Below, one piece after another: positions 1,728-48,678 of a stretch of 64,000 nt of DNA. Under the pieces are notes generated by a model. The model worked only from the letters and a program-made list of their open reading frames with translations. It ran no database searches and had not been told where the DNA came from. Location: IMG/VR virus record IMGVR_UViG_3300042566_000599, positions 1 to 64,000 of that record; one strand, given 5' to 3'. Source of the stretch: a virus. Positions within the stretch are counted from its first letter, which is position 1; every line of letters starts with the position of its first letter. A program made the position numbers and the translations under genes.

Positions 1728-3464
1728 CTACTCTTTATCTACCGTTCGTCGTTGTGGAATCTTGGTTCCATAGGCTTGAGTAAGCAAGTCATTTCTAATG
1801 CCTGCTTCTGCTTGGTCCTCAATCATCTTTGCTTCTTGAACAGCGGGGTCTTCAACCTTTTCTGGGGTTGGAGCGCCTTCAATACCGTCACCCATAACAT
1901 CCCCATCCCCTAACTGCGTTGGTGCTAGTGGGACTGCGTTTGCGCCATCAGGTCCAGGCATCATTCCTGTTAAATCTTGAATTTGCTTCTGTATTTGAAC
2001 TCGAATAAGGGATAACGCACCGTCCGCCTTGGCATCTTCCATAAGTTCACGGCGAATTTCTTGTAGTTTCTCTTCAGGGAATTCCTCTCCTAGAGTACGA
2101 AGAGCGCCTTCCTTTGACTCAAGGCCCATACCAAGTTTGGTTTGAATTTCATTAAGCACAATAAGTTTGTCTAGAGGAAGAGGAGGTGGGAACTGTACGT
2201 AGTTCATGTACGAGATTGGGTCATTAGGGTCTAATCGGTCTAGTTGACCTGCCTTGATTGGGCCGTCCTCATCTGGGTTGTACAAGAATGTTTGCGGTTC
2301 TTTGATGACAAGGGTGCGAAGTGCAAGTTCATTGATTCGCTCAAGGCCCTTACCATACTGCGCTACCTTTTGTGAGTAGCGGTTCATCAGTGGTTGATAC
2401 TGAATAGACAGAGCAACACCTGATGTGTTTGAGATTGGTTGAACTTGTCCAAGCGCAGTCTCAGGAATATTCATCATTTCGTGCATTGAGCGTTTCAACA
2501 ACTCAAGGTATTTTAATGCGCCATCAATTCCTTGTGCACCACCTTCAAGGTTGAATACTTGGGCGTCTTTTGGAAGACCTCCCCAAACTTTCTTTGCACC
2601 TTTCTCAAGGTTAGAGGCTTTAGCACCAACGATAACTGTCACAGGAGAAGCGTGATAGTTAATGATGTCTGCGACATCGGTGCTGATTTCGTTATATGCA
2701 CGGTTGATAGTGATGATGTCATGTGCGTCCGAGAGACCCCAGGGTGAACCTGAAACAGGAACGTTAGGAATATGTACCACTGGAATAAGTCCAAGTGGAT
2801 TTGGACGTGAATCGATGAGTTCATCATTGATGTACTCTTCAATTACGTCATCAGTTAAAATTTCAGTGTAAGTAAACACTTGACGGGTACCCTCTAGAGA
2901 AGTTCCCCAAAAACGATACTTCTGTTTAAAGCGAAGTAGACGAGTCCTATCATGTGGGTGAAACTCAGGAAAACAAAATGAGGAGTTCATTGGCAGAATG
3001 CGAACACGTCCAGGATGGAACCTTCCAGCAGAATCTGTCCATGGCTCTTCGTATGCTACTTTAACAAACACATCGCCTGTAATGCCGCCTTGTTGTCCCA
3101 TTTCAAGTAAGACACGCATCTTGTCGTTATCTACGTCCCAGATACGCTCTAAACGGTCTGGAATAATGGCCTCAGTTGCTTTTGGCGAACGAAAGTGAAC
3201 ACCGCGACCAAAAACAAATCTTGCAAGGTAGTCATTAAACGCACGATAATAGTTCACTGCAATTTGCATTTCGCCTTGTTCACGACGATAACCCCAGTGA
3301 TGCCCTAAATACATTGCCCAGTTTAGAGAGTAACGGTTTAATCGAGGACCGTGAACCTCAAATTCTTCATCAGCAAGTTCTACAAGACCAAGTGGTGAAA
3401 TAGAAATGGTAAGGTCGGATGACGCTGCGCGGTATGACGGTGGCGTGAAATCAAGAAATGACAT
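1728..3464 (-). CDS. Portal protein (SPP1 gp6-like)
   Basis: 578 aa; NPLGLIPVVHIPN...WGLSD and SGVALSIQYQPL motifs; position in head module. Confidence 0.88.
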   Translation of the reverse strand: MSFLDFTPPSYRAASSDLTISISPLGLVELADEEFEVHGPRLNRYSLNWAMYLGHHWGYRREQGEMQIAVNYYRAFNDYLARFVFGRGVHFRSPKATEAIIPDRLERIWDVDNDKMRVLLEMGQQGGITGDVFVKVAYEEPWTDSAGRFHPGRVRILPMNSSFCFPEFHPHDRTRLLRFKQKYRFWGTSLEGTRQVFTYTEILTDDVIEEYINDELIDSRPNPLGLIPVVHIPNVPVSGSPWGLSDAHDIITINRAYNEISTDVADIINYHASPVTVIVGAKASNLEKGAKKVWGGLPKDAQVFNLEGGAQGIDGALKYLELLKRSMHEMMNIPETALGQVQPISNTSGVALSIQYQPLMNRYSQKVAQYGKGLERINELALRTLVIKEPQTFLYNPDEDGPIKAGQLDRLDPNDPISYMNYVQFPPPLPLDKLIVLNEIQTKLGMGLESKEGALRTLGEEFPEEKLQEIRRELMEDAKADGALSLIRVQIQKQIQDLTGMMPGPDGANAVPLAPTQLGDGDVMGDGIEGAPTPEKVEDPAVQEAKMIEDQAEAGIRNDLLTQAYGTKIPQRRTVDKE

Positions 3465-4274: not shown

Positions 4275-5858
4275 TTAACCAAAGAAAGGATTACTTGATG
4301 CAACAATTTCTGGCATAACGAGGTCCTGAGTAAGGGAGCAAGCGATAGACAAGGAGTCCACAAAGTCGTCATGAGCGTAGGATTCGTCAGGGGCGGCTAC
4401 AAGAAAATTAGGACCTTTGTATTGCACCTCTGCATCTACCATCTGTTGGTAGAACCGCTTCCACGTTCTTAGGCGCCTTGTCTTTGCATGAGAAGGCCAT
4501 GAAATCATTTTACGTTGGATTAAAGCCTGTAGGTGTTTCCAACGTTTTGACTGCTCGGATGGGCTTGATGTCAAAGATATAACTTCTGCTCTAGGCAAAA
4601 GAAGTTTTAGTCTTTGTGCAACAGCATCACCTACACCGTTAGCGTCTACGCCAACTGCAAGTACGTCATAGTTCTCAAGGAAGTTAACAATTTGATAATA
4701 CTGCTCTTCCCAGTCATCTCCCTGCATTTCAAGCCAATTGAGAATGCGATGGTCAAAATACCCAAACTCATCAGGCCTATCCCAGTCGACCCAAACAACA
4801 GTTACAACGGTGCTGTCTGTCTTACGAGCAGGGTCGATACCAACAACAACTGGAGTCTTGTGCCAAGACTTTACTAACTCTTGTGATGTGTCACCAAGTT
4901 CATCCATTACTGATGAGGTAACAAACATTCCACGCTCTAACAACCACTTACAGTTGTACGACATTTGAAATTCATCAGAGTCCTCACCAATACGCAACAT
5001 TTCTTTTCTAATAAACTTTTCATAGTTTGCATTAAACTTTGCTACATCTTTCCAATCCCATTGGAAATGGTTTTGACGAGAAGCACGACCTGTCTGTCGT
5101 CTACGGTTTAATTGAATAGCGCGATAGAAGTTGTTTTTACTAGTCGTTGGTGTGCCAGTCTTTACCATTGTTCCTGCGTAGTACGCCAACATAGGAGAGA
5201 TAGACTTAGAAACAACAAAGTCGTCGGCTTCTTGACACTCATCGATTATTACAAGATGAAAAGATTTAGATTCAATTTTTGCTCTTGGGTTTGCAGTCAT
5301 CATTGTGATAGTAGAACCCGATTTCTTTAATCGAATTTGCCTTGTAACACCTCCCACACGTGCGGCTGCATCATCAATTTCAGGGTCATCCATAATTTCT
5401 AAAGCACGCTCTGAACTTAAACGAGTAACAGTACGGCCAAATAACGTTTCAGCCTGAGATTCTGTAGGAGCAAATAAACCAACCCAAATACCGTCTTTAA
5501 ACTTTCCAAGTAAATCAGGATACAGTTTTGCAAGACGGGGAAGTAGAATCATCATAGTTGCTACAGTGTCTGCAACAGTTTCTGATTTACCAGACTGACG
5601 AGAAGCAAGAGCAGTGATTTCTTCACCATCATTAATGATGACGGATTCCATAATACGACGAGCAAGCGGTTTCTGGTAAGCGTGCAGGTCGTGTCCCACA
5701 AGTACTACGAGAAACTCAAGCATCTTGTCTATGAGTTTGTCTACAAACTGTTGCGATAATTCATCTAAGGGTTCATCAACAGACTCTTCTACTGGCTGCT
5801 CATCCTGTAGAAAAAACTCAGGATTGATTTCTTCAAACTTATCTTGTTCCATATGCAC
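4275..5858 (-). CDS. terL: Terminase large subunit
   Basis: ASRQSGKS Walker A, VIIDECQ Walker B, TGTP coupling motif, GIDPA nuclease motif, C-terminal HDDFVDS. Confidence 0.95.
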   Translation of the reverse strand: MHMEQDKFEEINPEFFLQDEQPVEESVDEPLDELSQQFVDKLIDKMLEFLVVLVGHDLHAYQKPLARRIMESVIINDGEEITALASRQSGKSETVADTVATMMILLPRLAKLYPDLLGKFKDGIWVGLFAPTESQAETLFGRTVTRLSSERALEIMDDPEIDDAAARVGGVTRQIRLKKSGSTITMMTANPRAKIESKSFHLVIIDECQEADDFVVSKSISPMLAYYAGTMVKTGTPTTSKNNFYRAIQLNRRRQTGRASRQNHFQWDWKDVAKFNANYEKFIRKEMLRIGEDSDEFQMSYNCKWLLERGMFVTSSVMDELGDTSQELVKSWHKTPVVVGIDPARKTDSTVVTVVWVDWDRPDEFGYFDHRILNWLEMQGDDWEEQYYQIVNFLENYDVLAVGVDANGVGDAVAQRLKLLLPRAEVISLTSSPSEQSKRWKHLQALIQRKMISWPSHAKTRRLRTWKRFYQQMVDAEVQYKGPNFLVAAPDESYAHDDFVDSLSIACSLTQDLVMPEIVASSNPFFG

Positions 5859-10280: not shown

Positions 10281-10448
10281 TTAATCTTCGCGGTTGCGCA
10301 GGGGATACGTCACCATCCATGCAAATAAAGTTGCAATAGTGGCTACTCCCACTACATCTTTTGCGCTTCCATCAAGCACAATCCAGGCAATAAACATACC
10401 TAGTAGTGTCCATAGTTGGTCGAGCATATCTTTAAGGAATTTAATCAT
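10281..10448 (-). CDS. Small two-TM membrane protein (55 aa, not in ORF track)
   Basis: [55 protein letters not shown]; ATGA overlap with the upstream gene. Confidence 0.65.
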
Positions 10449-12730
10449 TTACGTCGTCTCCTAACGGCCTTACTATCTCCAGTTGGCGCACCGCCACCTG
10501 AACTGCTGCCTCCAGTTGACCCTCCAGTTGTTGTTGCGGCTGCAGCCGCAGCAGCGGCTGCTGTTGCAGCATTGATAGCAGCACCTGCAGCGATTACAGT
10601 TGCTACAACCATCTTTGTTGCTTCTTCGCGTTCTTCTTCGGACATGTCTGCACCGATGCTTCCTAATGCAAGAAGAACTTGACCTGGGTCTTCAAATAGG
10701 GCGCCAAGTAATTCAGAAGGGTTTTCAATAAGTGTGAGAGCGGCGGCAACTTCTGCAGTAATGATAACCTCATTACCGTTCTCATCGGTTCTAACATCGA
10801 CAGGTGTTTGTGGAGGTAAATCACTGTAAGTAATTCCAGCCTCTTGTAGAGTCTCGCTAGACACTGCTTCACCTGGTTGGAGGCTTTCCACAATCGCTGT
10901 GACAACAGCAGCCACCTCTGCGGCTGTTAACTTGCCATCAGCAAGTGCGTCAGAGATGACGGTTTCTGGTGTAGGCTGTGGGGATGATTCTTCAGACTGA
11001 TTTTCTTGCTCTTGGTTGTCTTGTTCTTGCTCTTCTGATTCTTCAGAAGGGAGTTCGTCCACAGGGTCCTCGGTTCCGTCAGTTTCTTCGGGGGTTGTGG
11101 GTTGTGACCCTTCTTCTGTGGGGCTCTGCTCTGGCTCTGTATCTGAATCAGTAGGTTCCTCAGATGAGTCTGGTTGTTGATTATCGGAAGATTCAGGAGT
11201 GTCTTCAGAACTCTCTTCATCGGTTGGAGTGTCTGACGGAGTGTCATCTTCTGGAGCATCCGTTGTCTCCTCTTCCTGATTTTGTGTTTCCTCTTCGGAA
11301 GGTTCTTCTGGATTCTCTTCAGGAGATTCAGGTTCTTCAGTCACTGGTGGCTCCACAGGATTCTCTGGTTGAGGCTGAGGCTCTGGTTGAGGTTCTGGAG
11401 CCGTGGGTTCAGGAGAAGGAGAAGGAGTAGGTACAGGTGAAGGTTCGGGTTGTGGTGTTGGCTCTGGTTGCGGGACTGGTGTTGGCTCTGGTGTTGGTAC
11501 GGGAGTTGGCTCAGGTTCTGGAAGAGGTTGAGGAGTAGGTGATGGAGTTGGTTCTGGTATTGGTTCCACTACTGGTGGGACTACTGGTGTGGGTTCTGGT
11601 TCAATGGGAACAGGAGTAGGCGTTGGAGTTGGTTCTGGGGTTGGTGTTGGGGTTGGTTCTGGCTGCGGTGTTGGTTCTGGTTCTGGTGTTGGTTCTGGTG
11701 TGGGTGTGGGAGTCGGAGTGGGCTCAGGTGATGGCTCGGGCTGAGGCTCAGGAGTCGGTTCAGGTTGAGGAGTAGGCTCTACAACTGGTTCAGGAGTTAA
11801 CTCGATAGGTTGTTCAATTTGAGTAACACCAGCCTCTTCTAGTGTAACAATTGTTCCATCTTGTAAACGCGCACCAGTACGCTCATCACCAAATAGGCGT
11901 CCTTCAACAGAGTATGTGTAAGAAACAGTCCCATCTGTAAGAATTTGACCAGTAATAACAATCTGTGTTGTCTCTCCAGTCATAGAACCGTATGGACGAT
12001 ATTTTCCATCCACTTGAAATCCACCCTCTGAAGTTCTAATAATGAAGTGGGTGTCTGGCATATGATGTGGCAATGCCCACCAGTCTCTAGATTCAATAGA
12101 GATAGACGGAGTATTTGGATAGGTGTGGAATGTTCCATCAGGTTGACCAAAGGTGATTACCGAGTTTGTTGTAGCATAAACATCCGTATATTCAACGCCG
12201 TTAAACATTACAGTTGTCTCTAGTGGAATTCGATAAGAAGTGTCATCTCCACCACCAGTGATTGTTTCTGTTACAACAGGTGGAGGAGTAGGTTGGGAGG
12301 TAACCGCAGGTGGAGTATCAGTGGATGTTGTTGTTGTTGTTGAGTTTTCTGCTGGGGATGGTTGTTGGGTGGATTCAGGGGACGGCTCCGTTGAAACAGA
12401 GGGTGAAGGTTCTACAACGGCTTCTTGAGTTGAACTCGTCCCAGAAGATGGAGAGGATTCTCCAGTGGGAGCAGAGGAATCGGAAGTTGGCTGAGGAGTT
12501 AAAGTGGGCGAAGGCTCGGACGTTGGCTCTTGAGTCGGACTTGGAACGGGTTCAGTCGAAGTTGATGTGGAAGGACTAACCGTAGAGTTTGAGGCAATAG
12601 TAACTGTTGATGTTTCTTCTGCATATGAAGGGATGACAGTTAAAAGCAAGTAGATAAAACTTGCACCTAATAAAAATGATAAACGATTAAAGAAACCAGA
12701 TTGTGCTGCGGATGAACGCAGTAGTGTCAA
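10445..12730 (-). CDS. Large Pro/Thr/Glu-rich surface or membrane-anchored protein
   Basis: N-terminal signal/TM, S/T/P linker, globular beta domain, (PE/PT)n, acidic tract, C-terminal hydrophobic helix, RRRRK tail. Confidence 0.75.
11360..11800. repeat. Coding low-complexity repeat (PEPTP/PQPE)n
   Basis: Repeated ggttctggtgtt/ggctcagg units. Confidence 0.8.
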
Positions 12731-16337: not shown

Positions 16338-16889
16338 TTACTTTTTGTGTTGAAGTTCCTTTTGAAAAGGTCCAGATGTGTTTACATCTATTTTTTCAGC
16401 AACAGTCATTGCTTTTTCTGGCTTCACGCCCGCGTACAGGGCTCCAAGAGCATATGGGGAGCCAGACCCAACACCATAAAACCCTACATCGGACATACAC
16501 ACTGATAAATCATCAGCAATATCAAATATCTGACCGTTGACAGCAATTAGCAAGTTAAACCGCATTTCACTTGCTTTTCCTTCAGATTTTCCTTCGTTAA
16601 AATCATAGCCATTGTTTTCTAAGCAGAGGCGTAGTGATGGCATCAATTTAGCGATAACAAAGTGATACGTGTCTTTTCTGTCTTTAGCAGCCATTGCAGG
16701 TGGAACCCATAGGTGTTGCGCAATATCGCAAGGTGCAACCTCTCCAGAACCAGCAACTAAGTACTCTCCTACAAGACTGATTTTTTTCATGGCTGGATGA
16801 TTACTGCGACGTCCACCATCAAGTGTTACTTGATTGTCTGCCATAAGCAGGCAGTGGTCTTCATACTGGACACCAATAATCGTAGTCAT
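16338..16889 (-). CDS. Ntn-hydrolase protease (HslV/proteasome-beta-like)
   Basis: MTTIIG N-terminal Thr, ADNQVT, KKI, GSGS.YALGAL, D..TSGP. Confidence 0.85.
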   Translation of the reverse strand: MTTIIGVQYEDHCLLMADNQVTLDGGRRSNHPAMKKISLVGEYLVAGSGEVAPCDIAQHLWVPPAMAAKDRKDTYHFVIAKLMPSLRLCLENNGYDFNEGKSEGKASEMRFNLLIAVNGQIFDIADDLSVCMSDVGFYGVGSGSPYALGALYAGVKPEKAMTVAEKIDVNTSGPFQKELQHKK

Positions 16890-17686: not shown

Positions 17687-18148
17687 TTATTCCGTTTCTG
17701 TGGAAATAAAGTTTGCTTTAAACACCTGCCAAAATGAAGCGAAGTCTTTGTGAAGAAGTAGTAGAGATACCTTTTCAAAAGGAACCCACATTGCTTCTTC
17801 TACTTCGTCGGTGTCTATTGTTGGAACTAACTCTTCATCTGTTGTTGCTAAGAAGGTGTGAAACTGCCAATTTCCATGGTCGCTGACAACTGAATCATAG
17901 ACAATTATTTTTCCAGGATTTAATCCGAGTTCTTCTTGAGTCTCTCGATATGCAGCCATCGAGTAGTCTTCGTCATAACGACGAGCACCACCAGGAATAC
18001 CCCAAGTGTTGGGTTGTTGACTTACGTTCTTAGAACGTAGTTCCAACAAAACTTTATTGTTGTGGACGATAAGAATGCCTGCTGCACCATACTTGCCCCA
18101 ATGCTTAGCGCCACATTCACACGGTAGTAATGCTTCTTCATCATTCAT
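17687..18148 (-). CDS. NUDIX hydrolase
   Basis: Nudix box GGARRYDEDYSMAAYRETQEELG. Confidence 0.92.
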   Translation of the reverse strand: MNDEEALLPCECGAKHWGKYGAAGILIVHNNKVLLELRSKNVSQQPNTWGIPGGARRYDEDYSMAAYRETQEELGLNPGKIIVYDSVVSDHGNWQFHTFLATTDEELVPTIDTDEVEEAMWVPFEKVSLLLLHKDFASFWQVFKANFISTETE

Positions 18149-18169: not shown

Positions 18170-18292
18170 TTAACGGTTCTTGTGTTTCTTCTTTCTTGTA
18201 TACACCTTTTTAGAGGGAACAGGAACCGCAGCGTTCGACCGTCTTAATTCCTGAACTTTCTTGACCCTGGCAGGATTAGGACTCTTCCTCAT
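18170..18292 (-). CDS. 40-aa basic peptide (not in ORF track)
   Basis: MRKSPNPARVKKVQELRRSNAAVPVPSKKVYTRKKKHKNR; ATGA overlap. Confidence 0.55.
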   Translation of the reverse strand: MRKSPNPARVKKVQELRRSNAAVPVPSKKVYTRKKKHKNR

Positions 18293-18552
18293 CGCTTTTT
18301 AGGGGTGAAGTGCTCGTGCTCGTGGTCTACTTCAAACTTACCATCCTCGTGCATCTGCATGTGTATCTTATGATGGTGGCTATAGTCATGTGAAAGGATG
18401 CCGTCACCACCAAATGACTTTGCATTAGAAGGTCCTCTACCCTTCGTGTGCCACTTAAGAATGTGCCAGCCAATAGAGTGGCCTTGTTGGTCTGGTACCC
18501 AACGCTTCTTGTTAGGCACATCATCAAATTGACTACTTAAGTTATCAGACAT
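18289..18552 (-). CDS. His-rich small protein with LSSQF leader
   Basis: MSDNLSSQF; many His in the C-terminal half. Confidence 0.6.
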   Translation of the reverse strand: MSDNLSSQFDDVPNKKRWVPDQQGHSIGWHILKWHTKGRGPSNAKSFGGDGILSHDYSHHHKIHMQMHEDGKFEVDHEHEHFTPKKR

Positions 18553-18554
18553 GG

Positions 18555-18653
18555 CTACTTCTTCTCACAGATACATTTGCAGGTGTCTATAGTACAGCAC
18601 CCATACAACATCTCGTGAAAGCAAAGACGGCACTCTTCTTTAGAAACGCTCAC
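18555..18653 (-). CDS. 32-aa Cys-rich peptide (not in ORF track)
   Basis: MSVSKEECRLCFHEMLYGCCTIDTCKCICEKK; GTGA overlap. Confidence 0.45.
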   Translation of the reverse strand: MSVSKEECRLCFHEMLYGCCTIDTCKCICEKK

Positions 18654-18967
18654 TTATGCTCTCCCAGTACCATGAAACCGTGAGGAGATGAGAAGAACCG
18701 CTCGTGCTCTACATTTCCTGATTCTATTTTTACATTGTCACTAACTGGTGTAACTCTATAGACCTTTACTGGTCTCTTCTCCGCCCCTATAGGCAGTTTT
18801 GTTTCGCCAAAGAAACGTGCTTGACCAGGGTCACTGGTAGCCCACGCACGTGCGACAGGTCCTTCGCCTTCAGTTACTGCAGGCAAGATGAACCCGCCAC
18901 TTACATCTGCACGAGTTCCGTGGTACATAGGACCAAACTGTTGCTCAGAGAGATTACGACGAGTCAT
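18650..18967 (-). CDS. Arr-like ADP-ribosyltransferase
   Basis: MYHGT, AWATSD, VYRVTP, FSSPHGFMVLGE; start MTRRNLSEQQF via ATGA overlap. Confidence 0.65.
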   Translation of the reverse strand: MTRRNLSEQQFGPMYHGTRADVSGGFILPAVTEGEGPVARAWATSDPGQARFFGETKLPIGAEKRPVKVYRVTPVSDNVKIESGNVEHERFFSSPHGFMVLGEHK

Positions 18968-19125
18968 ATGCTCCACCATCCATTAGGAGAGCCGTTTGGA
19001 TTATCAATCTTATGTTGCTCATGAGCATCGTTAACTGTGCGCCAATTAATCTCATGAGTAGGTTTGCCACATAATGGGCATGGGTCAACGCCAGTTAACT
19101 TATAGACGTGCTCGCATGTGTTCAT
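18964..19125 (-). CDS. 53-aa Zn-binding protein (not in ORF track)
   Basis: MNTCEHVY...CPLCGKPTHEINW; coupled on both sides. Confidence 0.55.
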   Translation of the reverse strand: MNTCEHVYKLTGVDPCPLCGKPTHEINWRTVNDAHEQHKIDNPNGSPNGWWSI

Positions 19126-19511
19126 TAGATACCTCTAAAGTAAGCGCTGTTTGTAATTGGGTCTCTACCTGCTCGTGCCTCAATATACGGGTTTAATACT
19201 GATGCCACATGTTTTTTTACAATAAAACCTATATTACTAGAACGTGCTCCAGGAAAGTCTTTACTTGATGCATCAGAGTGTAAGTTAGGGGCAAGTGGTT
19301 CTACTTCGTAAATATTACCGTGGTGTGGATGCTTACCCACAGAGTCAAAACCTAATCCGCTGCTAATGCGGTCTTGAGTGTGTTTCTCTGCATCTGCCAA
19401 ACTAGGCGTTGCCCAGGCAGCGGCACCGCTATGGCGAGGCTTTACAAGGTCACCTGGTTTTAGTGTTTCGATAGTGCCGTGAAATAACTGACCTGATAGT
19501 GGAGCGCTCAT
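19125..19511 (-). CDS. Arr-like ADP-ribosyltransferase
   Basis: LFHGT..L.PGDLV.P, AWATPS, IYEVEP, DFPG..SS..GFIV. Confidence 0.7.
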   Translation of the reverse strand: MSAPLSGQLFHGTIETLKPGDLVKPRHSGAAAWATPSLADAEKHTQDRISSGLGFDSVGKHPHHGNIYEVEPLAPNLHSDASSKDFPGARSSNIGFIVKKHVASVLNPYIEARAGRDPITNSAYFRGI

Positions 19512-19834
19512 CCGACATCGTTCCTTGGTACAGAGAAGTCGTGAAGTCCTATGACTTTAAAACCCTTTTGACTTCTATAAGTTTGTTTTGTTATGGTGTC
19601 TTTGTTGGTCAAGGTCTTATCGTTTTCTAATGGGGCTACTTTGTAAACCATGCCAAAGAGATGACCCTTACGTGATAACCGCTGGTCACTTGAGGCATAG
19701 ATATGTGCCGATAATTCGTGCGTAGTCGCGTAAGCGCCAGGACCCATTGCTGCATCAGACGGTTTTACTATATCTCCAACTTTTAAAGTCTCTGTAGTTC
19801 CGTGAAATAGTTGTTTAGATAAAGGTGCACTCAT
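19508..19834 (-). CDS. Arr-like ADP-ribosyltransferase
   Basis: LFHGT..LKVGDIV.P, AYATT, VYKVAP, YRSQKGFKVIG. Confidence 0.7.
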   Translation of the reverse strand: MSAPLSKQLFHGTTETLKVGDIVKPSDAAMGPGAYATTHELSAHIYASSDQRLSRKGHLFGMVYKVAPLENDKTLTNKDTITKQTYRSQKGFKVIGLHDFSVPRNDVG

Positions 19835-20274
19835 GCCTTCTTCTCCCTAGGTGGGTTAAAGGTGCGCTTGCGAGACTTAACTGCCTCTCCTGATTTGCGT
19901 AGGTTGGTCACTCCAGTAATTTTAACAGGAGCGCCTTCTTTTACCATGACTTCTTTTTCTTCATGAGGGTCTTGGCTACTAAAGTTTGCAAAACCACCTT
20001 GTCGCATTTTTTCCGTGTTTGTCTCTACAGAAGACATAGGAACTTGGGCATGCACTACGTGTGCGTAGTCAGTACGCCAGTGTGGTGTGAGAGCACGGCT
20101 GTTAGGGCTATTGGCAAACTCTTTAGCCACCTGTGAGTCTGCACTCCAGTGAGTACCTAGGTTGTTCATGTCCAACTTGTATTGTGACGACTTGCCACCT
20201 TTAGGATAATGAGGGTACGAGGTGTTGATGCCACGATGTGCTTCAAAGAATAACTCGTTAGATAGAACGCTCAC
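19831..20274 (-). CDS. R-S-E clade ADP-ribosyltransferase-like protein
   Basis: AHRG (R), HWSAD..VA..FA (S), EEKEV (ExE). Confidence 0.65.
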   Translation of the reverse strand: MSVLSNELFFEAHRGINTSYPHYPKGGKSSQYKLDMNNLGTHWSADSQVAKEFANSPNSRALTPHWRTDYAHVVHAQVPMSSVETNTEKMRQGGFANFSSQDPHEEKEVMVKEGAPVKITGVTNLRKSGEAVKSRKRTFNPPREKKA

Positions 20275-20609
20275 CAGTCCCAGCCCTTTTCATGTGGTTC
20301 CTTGTGCTCGACAGGAATTAACATATTGGGATTAACATCCATAGCAGATGCGATGCGATGATGTCCTTCTCCTAGCATCGGCCCTTTTTCACCGTGAATA
20401 ATCTCGACAGGATTTTGTACACCAATCTTTTTAATAGATTCGTACATACCTTTTGAATCTTCCCACTTGTCCTCTTTGGCCGACTTGAGTTTGCGTGCGA
20501 GCACCTCTTCATTGGGCTCGCCCCTGTGCGCATCCGTCATAGGCATCTTCGCTATCTCACGCGCAGGCAAAAACATAGCCAACTGATTACTTGACACGCT
20601 GCGGCTCAT
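20271..20609 (-). CDS. ParB/Sulfiredoxin-like N-terminal domain protein
   Basis: SIKKIGVQNPV...LGEGHHRIASA. Confidence 0.75.
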   Translation of the reverse strand: MSRSVSSNQLAMFLPAREIAKMPMTDAHRGEPNEEVLARKLKSAKEDKWEDSKGMYESIKKIGVQNPVEIIHGEKGPMLGEGHHRIASAMDVNPNMLIPVEHKEPHEKGWDW

Positions 20610-20629
20610 TTTTTTCTCTCCAGAAACGA

Positions 20630-21037
20630 CTAGTGGTGGAAGTGCTCTCCATTGAGAGTGGTGTGTGGATAATCTTCGTGAAATTTGCGATGGTCATGTT
20701 CATGTGCTGCAATTAACTCACGATGAGTCATGCGGTCTGCTTCACCTTCAGCATTCTCGTCCTTCGGACGCACACCAGGGATATGGTCGTCATAGCCATC
20801 GTGGTGTGAACGCCACTCTGCATAGTCGATACCGTGGCCGTTGTAGGACTTCATGTGGTCGAGCAGGTCAGCGTGGTCATGAATTTGTACAGTACGAGTG
20901 CGTTCGATGTTTGCACCCATGGCAGATAACTTTCCTGCCTCGGCCATCGCCTTGTAGGCATTGACAGAGTGTTCATCTAAGTGAATGTGGTCTTGTGGTT
21001 CATTGCACCATTCGCTACCGCAATGTTGATTTGCCAT
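20630..21037 (-). CDS. His-rich hypothetical protein
   Basis: Very His-rich (HEHDH, HFHH); SD present. Confidence 0.6.
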   Translation of the reverse strand: MANQHCGSEWCNEPQDHIHLDEHSVNAYKAMAEAGKLSAMGANIERTRTVQIHDHADLLDHMKSYNGHGIDYAEWRSHHDGYDDHIPGVRPKDENAEGEADRMTHRELIAAHEHDHRKFHEDYPHTTLNGEHFHH

Positions 21038-21048
21038 TGATTCTCTCC

Positions 21049-21165
21049 CTACGCCTTTGTGCTACTTGCAGTATTGGATGCTTTACTGGGCGGCATCATC
21101 TGCATAGCCACATTGACGTATTGGTCTTTGGGCATTACGAATTGATTTGCAGACAGGCTACTCAT
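21049..21165 (-). CDS. 38-aa peptide with LSANQF leader, first gene of the operon (not in ORF track)
   Basis: MSSLSANQFVMPKDQYVNVAMQMMPPSKASNTASSTKA; CATAAT -10 a few nt upstream (leaderless). Confidence 0.55.
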   Translation of the reverse strand: MSSLSANQFVMPKDQYVNVAMQMMPPSKASNTASSTKA

Positions 21166-42416: not shown

Positions 42417-42854
42417 CTATTCCTTGTACCTTAATAAGTCGTTGTCTTTTATGTATTCAAAAATTTCTTTGTTAGTTTTGTTTAAGATATAACTAGGTAT
42501 TGATAAAGAACTCAAAGAAGATACCCAACAATGTATTGACAAAACATAAAAACCTTCAGAACAAGAGTAGATACTAGGGTCTAACCGTGGTCTGTTAAGT
42601 AAAGCCTCTGTATTCTTTGGAACAACTACATATATAGGATTAAACAAAGGTTCTTCGTCAGTAACAGAAGTTTGTGTTCCGCCAAAAATAGGGGGCAATC
42701 CCAAAGCATATCTGGTTGCTAACTCAAGATGAGTCGTGGCAAATGCTTGTGCTCCAATTTCAGGAATACTGTAACCAGGAGTTATAAGGGTACCTATTTC
42801 CATCTGGTGTGGGCTTCCGTGAAACAATTTTAATTCTCCAATATTTTGCTCCAT
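42417..42854 (-). CDS. Arr-like ADP-ribosyltransferase
   Basis: LFHGS...IGTLITP, AFATT....A..YA, IYVVVP, YSC.EGFYV. Confidence 0.6.
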   Translation of the reverse strand: MEQNIGELKLFHGSPHQMEIGTLITPGYSIPEIGAQAFATTHLELATRYALGLPPIFGGTQTSVTDEEPLFNPIYVVVPKNTEALLNRPRLDPSIYSCSEGFYVLSIHCWVSSLSSLSIPSYILNKTNKEIFEYIKDNDLLRYKE

Positions 42855-42863
42855 TTAGAGTTA

Positions 42864-43802
42864 CTAATCTCCGATTCGATAAGTTGCTGCTCTACGAATA
42901 AGGGTTTGAGTATCAGGCAATTCAACTCCATACGTCTCTTCTGCCTGCTTTCCCTCGTAAGCCTTTAAGTAGTCATGCATCTGACGAAGAGCGGGAACAG
43001 TCCCATACTTCTTTCCTGCTTGCCAACGATAATTATAGAAGTCGTCATAACCCTTACCAAATTCACCAAATGCAAGTTTGCGAGATTGATGGATGTCCTC
43101 AAATAACATCGCTCCCTGCTGTAGTGATTGCTGTAACTTGTACTCGGCATTACGACGTATAGCGTCATTAGGAGCAGACTGCACTTCAATCAATGCCCTT
43201 GAATAACGAGTAACAATATCCATAGCCATAGAACGGTCACGTTGTGTTGCTTTTTCCCATGCAGGATTACTTGGAGCAGTTGTTCGACGTGGAAATACTG
43301 TCCACTCATTGTGCTTTAAGTCATATGCTGCATACGGATGTATGGTGCGAATATCTGTAGCACCAGGATTTACATAAAAAGTTACTTCAAATCCATGCCA
43401 ATTAGAAGTCTCTGGTTGTAAGTGATTTCTAAAGTCTTCATTAAGCATTTTACTAATTTCTGTATCAGACAATCCAACATATTCAGGATGGGCTCTACGG
43501 AACTGTACATAATCAACGCCAATCAACACATCCATGTCACCTGGGTCACGATGGGCTGACCATTGGTATGAGACTGCAGAACCTGCAATCCATGTGTGAG
43601 CCCAAAGGTCTGAGTGTCGGTACTGCTCATTCAAAAATCCAAATAGAAGTTGCAGAATTCCGTTCCGCACCCAGCCCTTGAGAACTGTGCCAGTAAATAA
43701 CTGAGGGTCTAAATCTTCTTCTGGTTGTGAGAAGTACGAAGTAGAACCTTGTTGAATCTCAACAGGCTCTGCTCCTTGTTCTATGCTTAACTGGCGTTTC
43801 AT
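42864..43802 (-). CDS. Pol-beta superfamily nucleotidyltransferase
   Basis: AGS.VSYQW...GDMDVL and EVTFYV. Confidence 0.75.
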   Translation of the reverse strand: MKRQLSIEQGAEPVEIQQGSTSYFSQPEEDLDPQLFTGTVLKGWVRNGILQLLFGFLNEQYRHSDLWAHTWIAGSAVSYQWSAHRDPGDMDVLIGVDYVQFRRAHPEYVGLSDTEISKMLNEDFRNHLQPETSNWHGFEVTFYVNPGATDIRTIHPYAAYDLKHNEWTVFPRRTTAPSNPAWEKATQRDRSMAMDIVTRYSRALIEVQSAPNDAIRRNAEYKLQQSLQQGAMLFEDIHQSRKLAFGEFGKGYDDFYNYRWQAGKKYGTVPALRQMHDYLKAYEGKQAEETYGVELPDTQTLIRRAATYRIGD

Positions 43803-46106: not shown

Positions 46107-46302
46107 TGTTCATCTCCCTACGCATTCTAGACTCAAACAAAACTTTTGAAAGCAGGTTAGCACCTGAAGTAGTTGCCTTGTACAGGGGATAGTCTCCCTC
46201 TAACTGAGAAACTGGAACGGCTGCGGCCCTCATTACTGCTCCGTGTTGTTCGGCTTGTGACATTCCTTTTTGCGCAAGAAAATCAGAAGAGTTATCAGCC
46301 AT
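46099..46302 (-). CDS. Hypothetical protein
   Basis: Coupled ORF. Confidence 0.5.
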   Translation of the reverse strand: MADNSSDFLAQKGMSQAEQHGAVMRAAAVPVSQLEGDYPLYKATTSGANLLSKVLFESRMRREMNNG

Positions 46303-46661
46303 TACTCACTCCCTAACGTGTTTCTAGATGCTCCAGTGTAGCCTGCTGGGCTTCCTGAGTACCATGAAGTGCGAGGTTCTACGTAGTTGCGGTCTACTGT
46401 TACAACATCATCAATGCCCACAGCACGACGGTCGTATCCATAGCGGTCTGGAAATAATCGAATCTGTGGAAGTGGTGGACGAACCATCTCTGCAATCTCT
46501 GTTCCAGGAATAGTTGCAACCATAAGTGCTTGCTGTGTTAGGCGCTCCATGTTAGAAGACCATGGACCGTTGTATTGCCAACGTTTTGCTACTTGGTCAG
46601 GTTGAACAGGAGCACGCCATGGCTTTGTGTGGTCATACACTCCATCATACTTCTGCGTCAT
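46302..46661 (-). CDS. Hypothetical protein
   Basis: Coupled ORF. Confidence 0.6.
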   Translation of the reverse strand: MTQKYDGVYDHTKPWRAPVQPDQVAKRWQYNGPWSSNMERLTQQALMVATIPGTEIAEMVRPPLPQIRLFPDRYGYDRRAVGIDDVVTVDRNYVEPRTSWYSGSPAGYTGASRNTLGSE

Positions 46662-47311
46662 AGTGCACCTCTATGAGAAACCCAAGATACTGCTTGAGTT
46701 TTATTAGGGATGTCTACACCAAGTTGTTCAGAAGCAGACTTGTATGCGTGCACAAAATGTTGATAACGACCCATAGCAGAAAGGCCGATGTCAGGCGACA
46801 TCTTTCCTCCACCACCACGTGGTGTTGATTTACGCCCAGTTCCTACAAAAGGATGTCCCATAGCAATGTCATAAGCATGACGGTCAATTGTTACTGGTTC
46901 TTTGTTACTTGGGTCGTGAATATTCTCAAAAAAACTACGGACTTTATGTCCACCCAGTACTTCGTGTGGGTCTTCTCCACTGTGAATTCGTCTTGCTTTT
47001 TCTACGTTTGCTGGAAGAAGTGCTCCTGGTACAGAGCCTGTTGTTCTAAGTTCGTGTGCTTGAGCAACATTCTTATCCCAATCATTGAGAGGAGATAATG
47101 CAGCAAGAATTCCTGCTCCTTTACGAACGTCTCCACTACCAACTTTTTTGGCTTCGTCATGAGCACGCTCATACCACTCAGAACCGCCCTTAAGTAGTTC
47201 AGGACTAGACTGGTTATACTTATTTAAAATATTTTGAACATGAACGTGAAACTGTTCTTGGGCTAAATTTTTATCCCAACTACCATGTTCGTTAACTCCA
47301 AAGAATGCCAT
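46658..47311 (-). CDS. HhH-glycosylase-like fold protein (DUF7178-like)
   Basis: WY..AH, AALSP...W..N, G.KV.SF..NI, VTIDRHA, QA.SW. Confidence 0.55.
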   Translation of the reverse strand: MAFFGVNEHGSWDKNLAQEQFHVHVQNILNKYNQSSPELLKGGSEWYERAHDEAKKVGSGDVRKGAGILAALSPLNDWDKNVAQAHELRTTGSVPGALLPANVEKARRIHSGEDPHEVLGGHKVRSFFENIHDPSNKEPVTIDRHAYDIAMGHPFVGTGRKSTPRGGGGKMSPDIGLSAMGRYQHFVHAYKSASEQLGVDIPNKTQAVSWVSHRGAL

Positions 47312-47844
47312 TATTGCCACGCAGGTTTCAAATAAGCCATCATGTTTTGACGGCGTACATCAATTTGACCTGGAGCATCTGATACTAAATTTGACTTACC
47401 ATCATTTACTAGGTGTGGAGCAGGAGTTAGTTGAGTTTGTGGAGCAAAACGCGGTGCACGGTAAACTACCGCACCTTTGCTTGCGTCTGCTTGTGCCAAC
47501 ATTTGACGACGAATACCCATATCTGACGTAAACTCTTGAGGCCAAAAGTACATAGATGGCTCAATACGTTCACCTTTATGAACACCTCGTTGATAAGCCT
47601 TTTGATTTACACGACTCTTTACTGAGTCAAGAAGTCTGTCATCTCGACGTGAGCGGATTGTTCCTAAATAACCGTCTGGATACTCAGCAGATGGGACGCG
47701 GCCAACACCAATACGTGTTGCATCCAGAAGGTCACGAGCAACTGGAGTTCCTGCCCCACCCTGGTTGTTATAACCAGCAAGTCCTCCGCCACCTAATGAT
47801 TGCCAGTTTTGACTAGCGGAAAAGTTATTAGCGCCTGTAGGCAT
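47311..47844 (-). CDS. Hypothetical protein
   Basis: Coupled ORF. Confidence 0.6.
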   Translation of the reverse strand: MPTGANNFSASQNWQSLGGGGLAGYNNQGGAGTPVARDLLDATRIGVGRVPSAEYPDGYLGTIRSRRDDRLLDSVKSRVNQKAYQRGVHKGERIEPSMYFWPQEFTSDMGIRRQMLAQADASKGAVVYRAPRFAPQTQLTPAPHLVNDGKSNLVSDAPGQIDVRRQNMMAYLKPAWQ

Positions 47845-48422
47845 CAGACACCTCTTCCTCTACGGTTCTTTGCAATCTTTGCATAAACTTCATTAATAGA
47901 AATTGGCTTTCCTCGTAAACGTGCGCCACGACTAATGTGAGATTGCTCAGCAAACTCCATAGCCTTTGGTTTTGGCTCCATACGTTCAGCAGCACTCGAC
48001 CCTGTTGAAGTACTACGAAATTCTGGATTAGATTCAATGCCCCTTAATTGACGGCTAAAATAAAGGTTGCCACCTTCTGGACGACGAGTATCCGTACCAC
48101 CGAGGTCATAACCAGCAATCTGCTTATCACGTTCTCCTGCTGAACGAGCAGACTCTAAACTTGTGTGCTTTTGACTTACGTCTTGAAATATTTTATTACC
48201 AGATTTCCAAGCACCCTGATAGTCACTACTAGTTGCTTGTACTTCATGTTCTTTTCTAAAAGACTTTGCTTGTTCAGGAGTTAACGGAGCATCTGTTATC
48301 TTTTCAGCACCTGGTTTTGAGACCATAATGCCAGGTCCTTTTGCAGGTTGAAAGGTTCGTAAATTGCGGCTTGCTCCGCCTTCATTTGCTAGTTTTGCAA
48401 ATTCAGAATTACTCAGCACCAC
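47844..48422 (-). CDS. Hypothetical protein with LSNSEF leader
   Basis: MVLSNSEF; GAW...DVS...Q.A.YDL. Confidence 0.6.
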   Translation of the reverse strand: MVLSNSEFAKLANEGGASRNLRTFQPAKGPGIMVSKPGAEKITDAPLTPEQAKSFRKEHEVQATSSDYQGAWKSGNKIFQDVSQKHTSLESARSAGERDKQIAGYDLGGTDTRRPEGGNLYFSRQLRGIESNPEFRSTSTGSSAAERMEPKPKAMEFAEQSHISRGARLRGKPISINEVYAKIAKNRRGRGV

Positions 48423-48678
48423 GACCTACCCCCTTGTCAGAACGAGGCAAACTAGGGGTAGCGTCATCATCAAACTTGTACACAGAACCAGAACTCTTTT
48501 TTGAGTAAGGTAGAGGTCCGCCCTTACCCATATCACGGGTACGCCAAGCAGTGCGTTGTTCATAGGTTCCGCGAGTAGCAGAACCGTACGATACTGGTGA
48601 CTCTATTTCAGGAGTGACTGGCGTAACAATGCTGTTGTCATCCCCGAACTGTGAATAAGAACGAGGTTGTGTTGGCAC
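48409..48678 (-). CDS. Hypothetical protein
   Basis: MPTQPRSYSQF... Confidence 0.5.
   Translation of the reverse strand: MPTQPRSYSQFGDDNSIVTPVTPEIESPVSYGSATRGTYEQRTAWRTRDMGKGGPLPYSKKSSGSVYKFDDDATPSLPRSDKGVGRGAE

Follow-up and report, generated by a model that had tools for sequence, protein, structure and literature searches.

A short N-terminal tag shared by unrelated small proteins of a freshwater actinophage lineage: a possible address for loading effector modules into the head

We analyzed a 64,000-nucleotide stretch of viral DNA (the window), the first 64 kb of the 96,345-bp, circularly assembled phage contig of IMG/VR record IMGVR_UViG_3300042566_000599, and identified a short N-terminal peptide (the tag) on unrelated small proteins, among them those encoded by a gene array at 18.2-21.2 kb. 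The tag is real, enriched at N-termini, portable between folds, and under selection at the protein level, and the families that carry it are the modules of a set of giant multi-module proteins. We propose that it is a portable address or docking peptide of one freshwater-actinophage lineage, which may load split "polyvalent" effector modules into the phage head, and we give this reading a probability of roughly 0.45. The flexible tag of each free module would bind one phage-encoded receptor in the assembling head (the inner surface of the capsid, the scaffold, or the portal), and the virion would carry the tagged enzymes into the next host along with the DNA. On the most economical view, the tag would replace covalent linkage, giving each free module its own address where the giants have a fusion.

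Sequence, spacing, and enrichment of the tag

The tag was identified at the starts MSSLSANQF, MSRSVSSNQL, MSVLSNELF (with a GTG start codon), MSAPLSKQLF, MSAPLSGQLF, MTRRNLSEQQF, and MSDNLSSQF. These starts had been listed for 18.2-21.2 kb in a first-pass annotation made from the DNA alone, and all were present on the minus strand and spelled as listed; the strong instances in the window number 7 (21049-21165, 19831-20274, 19508-19834, 19125-19511, 18650-18967, 18289-18552, and 47844-48419), each of them also on that strand. In full, the 9-12-residue consensus reads M-S-A-x-D-N-L-S-x-x-Q-F, the short form is M-S-N-L-S-x-x-Q-F, and the core is L-S-x-x-[Q/L]-F. With our own gene calls (157 genes; 158 proteins in the motif count), the pattern proposed by the first-pass annotation matched 7 N-termini, against 0.2 expected, and 4 of 28,454 internal positions. 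As that pattern had been composed after viewing the data, it was retested on independent sequence. In 4 complete genomes, those of the window's phage (G000) and its relatives G004, G005, and G006, the LS..[QL]F core was found at 4, 1, 8, and 5 N-termini, respectively, against 0.08-0.43 expected from its internal frequency. The suggested excess at N-termini over internal positions was thus present in the window genome and in related complete genomes, with an enrichment of 20-50 fold across the 4.

A degenerate DNA pattern for the long-form peptide, with the MSA prefix required, was scanned over IMG/VR, with a handful of chance matches estimated. The scan returned 43 loci, with ~40 contigs from one lake-phage lineage, as judged by a portal that is 83-89% identical in 4 of 5 records, those in which it was found. 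Three of the 6 pattern loci inspected in detail resemble chance matches. We collected 117 distinct tagged open reading frames (ORFs) from the pattern-scan loci and aligned them on L-S; position +5 is F in 99 of them, +4 is Q in 78 and L in 30, L is preceded by N in 88, and in 91 L comes 6 or 3 residues after the initiator Met. The F at +5 and the Q or L at +4 point to a fixed spacing, L-S-x-x-[Q/L]-F, so the shared motif described in the first-pass annotation stands while its variable LS-x2-3 spacing does not.

The genes of the array are small and tightly coupled, with ATGA and GTGA overlaps, and the content of the array varies between related loci. Both features would fit a tag without function, left behind by tandem duplication and cassette shuffling and serving as a recombination junction or as a favorable region for translation initiation in coupled genes, as would the over-use of TCT and CTA codons in the tag. 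We consider such an origin very improbable. At the fixed Leu and Ser positions all six Leu and all six Ser codons occur, Ser being encoded by both AGY and TCN while the amino acids stay fixed, and this use of every synonymous codon indicates conservation at the peptide level. Substitutions are conservative (Q/E/L, F/W/L), and in some families the tag is located 15-25 residues inward of the start. In an alignment of R-S-E ADP-ribosyltransferases (ARTs; alignment A1), L4, S5, and F9 of the tag are invariant, like the catalytic R14, at a mean column identity of 34%, and among orthologues 22-50% identical the tag residues are conserved as strongly as the catalytic ones. Judged from these codon and alignment patterns, the tag is maintained by protein-level selection.

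The tagged proteins are small and basic, with a median isoelectric point of 8.7 vs 6.4, and contain 9 Cys in ~14,400 residues, whereas untagged zinc-ribbon genes interleaved with them are Cys-rich. No common C-terminal motif was found among the tagged proteins, whose tails are family specific. The stretch of DNA that makes up the window was found in lake-water metagenomes only, all DNA runs, with no RNA run among those listed. A nucleotide search of GenBank phages with the array gave no match, and a tblastn search with the R-S-E ART as query likewise gave none. Literature searches returned mentions of ARTs in freshwater phages and no description of the tag itself, which agrees with the earlier description of an undescribed modular peptide: it is a portable N-terminal peptide on differing folds.

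Families that carry the tag

Six related IMG/VR loci were brought in by the R-S-E ART protein, and in these loci neighboring, different proteins carry the longer start M-S-A-x-D-N-L-S-x-x-Q-F; with an Arr-like protein as query for related loci, nothing was confirmed. After removal of the tag, BLAST grouped the 117 ORFs into ~29 body-only clusters, some of which are probably remotely related to each other. The tagged families include R-S-E ARTs, Arr-like ARTs, ParB/sulfiredoxin (Srx)-like proteins, GNAT proteins (above the Pfam threshold), His-rich proteins, and a 38-aa peptide. The carriers had been described as having different folds, which is correct across ART, ParB/Srx, and GNAT but not between the R-S-E and Arr-like proteins, both of the ART superfamily.

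All genes of the array in the window lie on the minus strand. The 38-aa peptide (21049-21165), little more than a tag, starts with MSSLSANQF and has a conserved tail, YVNVAMQMMPPS..ASNTASSTKA. Its gene usually opens the tagged array and is conserved in at least 10 related loci, where variant tags such as MNNLSQEQF, MNAKDNLNKSQF, and MISQQQF were found. It is followed by an untagged His-rich 135-aa protein (20630-21037) and by a ParB/Srx-like protein with a DGHHR motif (20271-20609), which matched ParB and sulfiredoxin in a PDB profile search. The degenerate tag of this window copy, MSRSVSSNQL, is supported by its orthologues (alignment A2), which have MSAQDNLS..Q[FL] starts, with one reading MS-AQNLSYQQL. 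The R-S-E ART (19831-20274; R14, HWS, ExE) carries MSVLSNELF. Three Arr-like minimal ARTs were identified, the first (19508-19834; H-G-T) with MSAPLSKQLF and with Pfam Arr-ms and ART-PolyVal matches below threshold, the profile beginning at residue 9; the second (19125-19511) with MSAPLSGQLF, in BLAST cluster 1; and the third (18650-18967) with MTRRNLSEQQF, 3 residues before YHGT. A His-rich 87-aa protein (18289-18552; BLAST cluster 9) has the short-spacing tag MSDNLSSQF, which is lost in its G005 orthologue. The two small Cys-rich, zinc-ribbon-like genes (18555-18653 and 18964-19125) are untagged, as is a Lys-rich 40-aa protein (18170-18292), of which the relative in locus L044 begins MAAQDNLSKVQ. 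The R-S-E ART family also has a strongly conserved basic C-terminal tail, K-x-R-x-R-T-[YF]-N-P-P-R-E-M-K-A. A promoter and terminator scan and a search for shared intergenic words found nothing above shuffles; upstream of the 38-aa gene there is a TAGCC..CATAAT box that occurs nowhere else in the genome, and its conservation does not extend to all relatives.

In AlphaFold2 (AF2) models of the R-S-E ART and the ParB-like protein, confidence is low over the first 5-8 residues, and the fold begins directly after the tag. The ART model has a predicted local distance difference test score (pLDDT) of 81, with the tag disordered and strand beta-1 starting from F9, and its top Foldseek matches, all weak, were the pertussis, cholera, and PltA ARTs; in the ParB-like model, residues 1-5 have pLDDT <50. 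In ARTs, strand beta-1 adjoins or includes the final F of the tag (QLF-HGT, ELFF-EAHRG), and in other members the tag lies 3-6 residues from YHGT. This varying distance, from 0 to 3-6 residues, places the tag outside the ART fold. The first-pass annotation had also argued that the tag is not simply part of that fold, since an Arr-like gene at 42417 is without it; we confirmed that this gene lacks the tag, as does a NUDIX gene, and the tag occurs on ParB/Srx, GNAT, His-rich, and 38-aa proteins while ART modules of the giants are without it.

Just downstream of the array lie an untagged NUDIX hydrolase gene (17687-18148, minus strand) and, in the window and in 6/6 of the first relatives, a gene (16338-16889, minus strand) for an Ntn peptidase, HslV/proteasome-beta-like and with M-T-T intact at its start. 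An Hsp20 gene comes after the HslV-like gene. The position of this peptidase, together with a tag that is exposed and disordered in the AF2 models, would suit a degron, or a signal for processing, recognized either by the HslV-like enzyme of the phage or by an AAA+ protease of the host, which would shorten the life of toxic enzymes or activate them. The synteny between the HslV-like gene and the array is, however, genome-wide in the lineage and so is not specific evidence, no sign of the ATPase partner that HslV usually requires was found in the vicinity of the array, and the Arr-like tag leads straight into the catalytic strand, so that cleavage after F would destroy the fold. The HslV-like peptidase is only a candidate partner of the tag, and we regard a degron as improbable; both this and a shuffling legacy are less likely explanations of the tag.

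Tagged genes outside the array

Tagged or tag-like starts were also identified in a DNA-metabolism block, in genes on the minus strand adjoining RuvC-like and exonuclease genes. A 191-aa protein (47844-48419) with the short tag MLSNSEF matched phrog_3170 and has a G005 orthologue that reads MSDNRPILSDAQF, and an 89-aa protein (48409-48678) has the tag-like start MPTQPRSYSQF, with orthologues that begin MPLSSTQF, MPNSVAQF, and MSILSSSEF. The first-pass annotation had proposed 4 distant starts, of which these 2 are borne out by orthologues, and those at 46302 and 45039, which it had called weaker, are not. In a DUF7178 protein (46658-47311) a tag-like NLAQEQF lies at residues 14-21, and this protein may or may not belong to the tagged set. 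The DUF7178 gene is separated from that of the 191-aa protein by a gene for a Gly-rich 177-aa protein (47311-47844, minus strand), 74-92% conserved in 3 relatives, with a start that resembles the tag, N-N-[FY]-S-x-x-Q-N-W.

A short disordered terminal motif with two hydrophobic anchors, common to unrelated proteins and present on genes within a DNA-metabolism block, could also be a docking motif for a cytoplasmic hub, one complex of host or phage such as a replisome clamp, RNA polymerase, or the ribosome, at which it would gather different modifying enzymes produced after infection; the tag-only peptide would then be a competitor or regulator. The beta-clamp-binding motif is comparable as a short terminal motif on unrelated proteins that docks to one hub, and its consensus is QL[SD]LF or QLxLxL. 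The ParB/Srx-like family (A2) has a conserved Q-L-x-M-F-x-P directly after or overlapping the tag, which resembles the beta-clamp-binding pentapeptide. This separate Q-L-x-M-F is the only match, whereas the L-S-x-x-[Q/L]-F logo of the tag does not match the beta-clamp consensus, either as QL[SD]LF or as QxxLxF.

A conserved host hub should also show wider use than was found with the MSA-prefixed pattern, namely one phage lineage and one ORF of a metagenome-assembled genome (MAG). Among 185,579 species genomes, the exact tag was identified only in a duplicated 159-aa ORF of one Actinomycetota MAG (L072:5665-6144 and L073:3055-3534), which starts MSAQDNLS[RK]AQF and lies beside transposase genes. 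This ORF matched nothing in Pfam or Atlas, nor was it homologous to the tagged families, and it could be a chance match, of which ~2 were expected in the scan, or a tagged gene on a mobile element. Taken together, we consider docking to a cytoplasmic hub unlikely, though clearly less so than a degron.

Giant multi-module proteins

Among 1.84 billion representative proteins, a profile of the R-S-E ART family found 655 relatives. The strict tag was identified in 68 of 106 small ART representatives, with variants in many others. A further 44 matches combine several ART modules in one polypeptide of 600-3,714 aa, and these giants, which come from other contigs of actinophage-like elements, also contain Arr-like, GNAT, ParB, NUDIX, and LigT modules (by Pfam and our own family profiles), with 2-10 modules of tagged-family types in addition to NUDIX and LigT. 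Of the 52 gene families in related loci, the giants match only the 4 large tagged ones. NUDIX is likewise a module of 4 giants; the window NUDIX protein matched one of them, P0007, with a BLASTP E value of 2e-23, and Pfam identified NUDIX in P0007. Some giants have Cys/His-rich stretches between modules. The 312-aa protein of a DpdA-like cassette in the window (42864-43802, minus strand) matched 12 giants (E 1e-22) and Streptomyces phage genes, so this cassette also shares a module with the giants.

No copies of the tag were found in the giants, against ~0.7 expected, and at such an expectation the absence alone is weak evidence. Set beside the 68 of 106 stand-alone ARTs that are tagged, it suggests that the tag goes with the split state. 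Docking to a cytoplasmic hub would leave this tagless state of the same modules in head-encoded giants unexplained. Two candidate spacers within giants were rejected: the tag, which is absent there, and a TDWD..YP.LP stretch before HRG, which is confined to the ART family.

The giants have a motif of their own, [VLIM][VLIM][AG]HF[EADG], which was identified in 14/45 giants with 58 occurrences vs 0.15 expected, always between modules. The motif-bearing giants are within P0005-P0096, relatives of the window ART at 19831-20274, and none is encoded in the window. Several giants begin with a similar D-hydrophobic-hydrophobic-x-H-F peptide (M-D-L-L-x-H-F). The inter-module motif could be a processing or a docking signal. 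As a protease site it would favor the degron discussed above, but at residues 2-8 it would offer no useful cleavage site. Together, a motif between the modules of giants and a tag on free modules point to a shared design, in which a short leader precedes each module and the leader sequences differ between fused and split lineages. We tentatively entertain a broader possibility, that effector modules carry lineage-specific leaders, readable from sequence, with DNLSxxQF on free modules in this lineage and, in high-GC relatives, D-hydrophobic-hydrophobic-x-H-F at the N-terminus and between modules of head-encoded giants, and that the fused and split forms are interchangeable means of protease-free capsid loading.

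One giant, P0153 (1,769 aa), could be placed in a genome. It is encoded on L071, a 135-kb metagenome contig with 64.5% GC, between the portal and a fusion of head protease and DUF7178, after which comes the major head protein. A scan of viral contigs with another giant, P0003, for genomic context found nothing. The core domain of the tagged 191-aa window protein is homologous to the C-terminal domain of a 636-aa LigT fusion adjacent to the L071 portal (BLASTP E 1e-8), with phrog_3170 matching both, and the window DUF7178 protein matches the DUF7178 fused to the L071 head maturation protease. With these LigT-domain and DUF7178 matches, each of the three G000 proteins with a match in the head module of L071 has a tag or begins in a tag-like way. 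The idea of a head payload is therefore indirectly supported, as far as homology and gene order can indicate, by the correspondence between the tagged families and the module types of the giants and by the position of the sole readable giant between portal and protease/capsid genes.

Head genes of the window phage and evidence against head loading

The head module of the window phage comprises, in order, a terminase (4275-5852), a portal (1728-3464), a coiled-coil scaffold (817-1605), and an HK97-type major capsid gene, which spans the contig ends (1-783 of the window, minus strand, and 95874-96284 of the genome); at least 100 bases are repeated at these ends, which indicates the circular assembly. 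Between the lysis genes and the terminase gene, a 761-aa protein (10445-12730, minus strand) combines a signal peptide with very long Pro/Thr/Glu-rich linkers. It was rejected as head cargo on account of the signal peptide and the Pro/Thr-rich linkers, features of a secreted protein, and it is probably secreted or surface displayed, as predicted from its sequence.

Several observations weigh against loading of the tagged proteins into the head. Searches of the terminase-portal-scaffold-capsid module with PHROGs and Pfam turned up no prohead protease, and the tag shows no evident cleavage motif. The scaffold was considered as a carrier of the tag and rejected, because its N-terminal DANLSAVNL stretch is not conserved in 5 relatives, and no receptor was identified. 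Cys depletion was rejected as a mark of virion proteins, with per-family p values of 0.19-0.3 and several untagged families that are also Cys-free; at the family level the low Cys content of the tagged proteins is only suggestive. Neither the NUDIX module nor the Arr-like gene at 42417 is tagged, genomic context was read for one giant only, and the tag is unlike the capsid-targeting sequence (CTS) of phage T4. The array, further, is not next to the portal, terminase, or other head genes. It lies on the same strand as the terminase gene and ~12 kb upstream of it, near the start of a leftward operon and next to a putative early region. Such a position suits effectors that are expressed early and dock on a shared partner, and so speaks for the cytoplasmic hub.

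Comparison with known systems

The CTS is the only common element of the T-even internal proteins (PMC3012670). Like the tag, the CTS of T4 (on IPI-III and Alt) is a short N-terminal peptide and the sole common part of diverse, fast-changing, small basic anti-host proteins that include an ART (PMC3012670, PMC5512222). In T4, these proteins are assembled onto a scaffolding core and the CTS is removed by the prohead protease, whereas in the window phage neither a prohead protease nor a cleavage site was found. The gp21-type protease of T4 uses an (L/I)-x-E cleavage site; the consensus of the window tag is unrelated to the CTS, and the tag merges with beta-1 in ARTs. The hosts of the tagged phages are actinobacteria, unlike that of T4, and it is by inference that we extend packaging to the tagged proteins.

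In P1, fewer than 30 N-terminal residues direct DarB, a polyvalent anti-restriction protein, into the head, and they load a reporter as well (PMC9024508). Its modules overlap in type with those described here (ParB-like and GNAT-like regions), and tblastn matches fell on "DarB-like" proteins. DarB is a single 250-kDa fusion that needs helpers, whereas here many single-domain proteins are each tagged, and the sequences are unrelated.

Iyer et al. (2017) described polyvalent proteins of phages and conjugative elements and argued that those of phages are packaged in the capsid (PMC5512222). The repertoire of ART, GNAT, ParB, NUDIX, and 2H/LigT domains is the same, and homology to the 44 giants is direct. 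Polyvalent proteins have 2-15 effector domains per polypeptide, whereas the window proteins are single-domain proteins of 38-191 aa, with fusion found only in the relatives P0003-P0153. The head-gene neighborhood of polyvalent proteins is present for the L071 giant and absent for the window array.

In a Family 2A encapsulin, the disordered N-terminal motifs of a cysteine desulfurase bind the interior of the HK97-fold shell and are sufficient for loading (PMC8049743). Encapsulins are cellular nanocompartments and not viruses. The encapsulin motif LARLANEFFS may resemble LSNELFF.

Implications

If the tag is a loading signal, it would provide a sequence rule for the proteins that abundant uncultured actinobacterial lake phages deliver with their DNA, and the cargo so predicted would consist of ARTs, acetyltransferases, and ParB-like enzymes, directed at host takeover or counter-defense. 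Capsid cargo targeting would then extend beyond T4 and P1, to a phage without a recognizable prohead protease, and giant polyvalent proteins and small tagged arrays would be two states of one system. Foreign proteins could also be loaded into such capsids by means of the tag. Even if the tag docks to a cytoplasmic hub, a new short linear motif has been defined. If the reading of lineage-specific leaders is true, the virion-delivered effector set of uncultured phages would be predictable from the tag alone.

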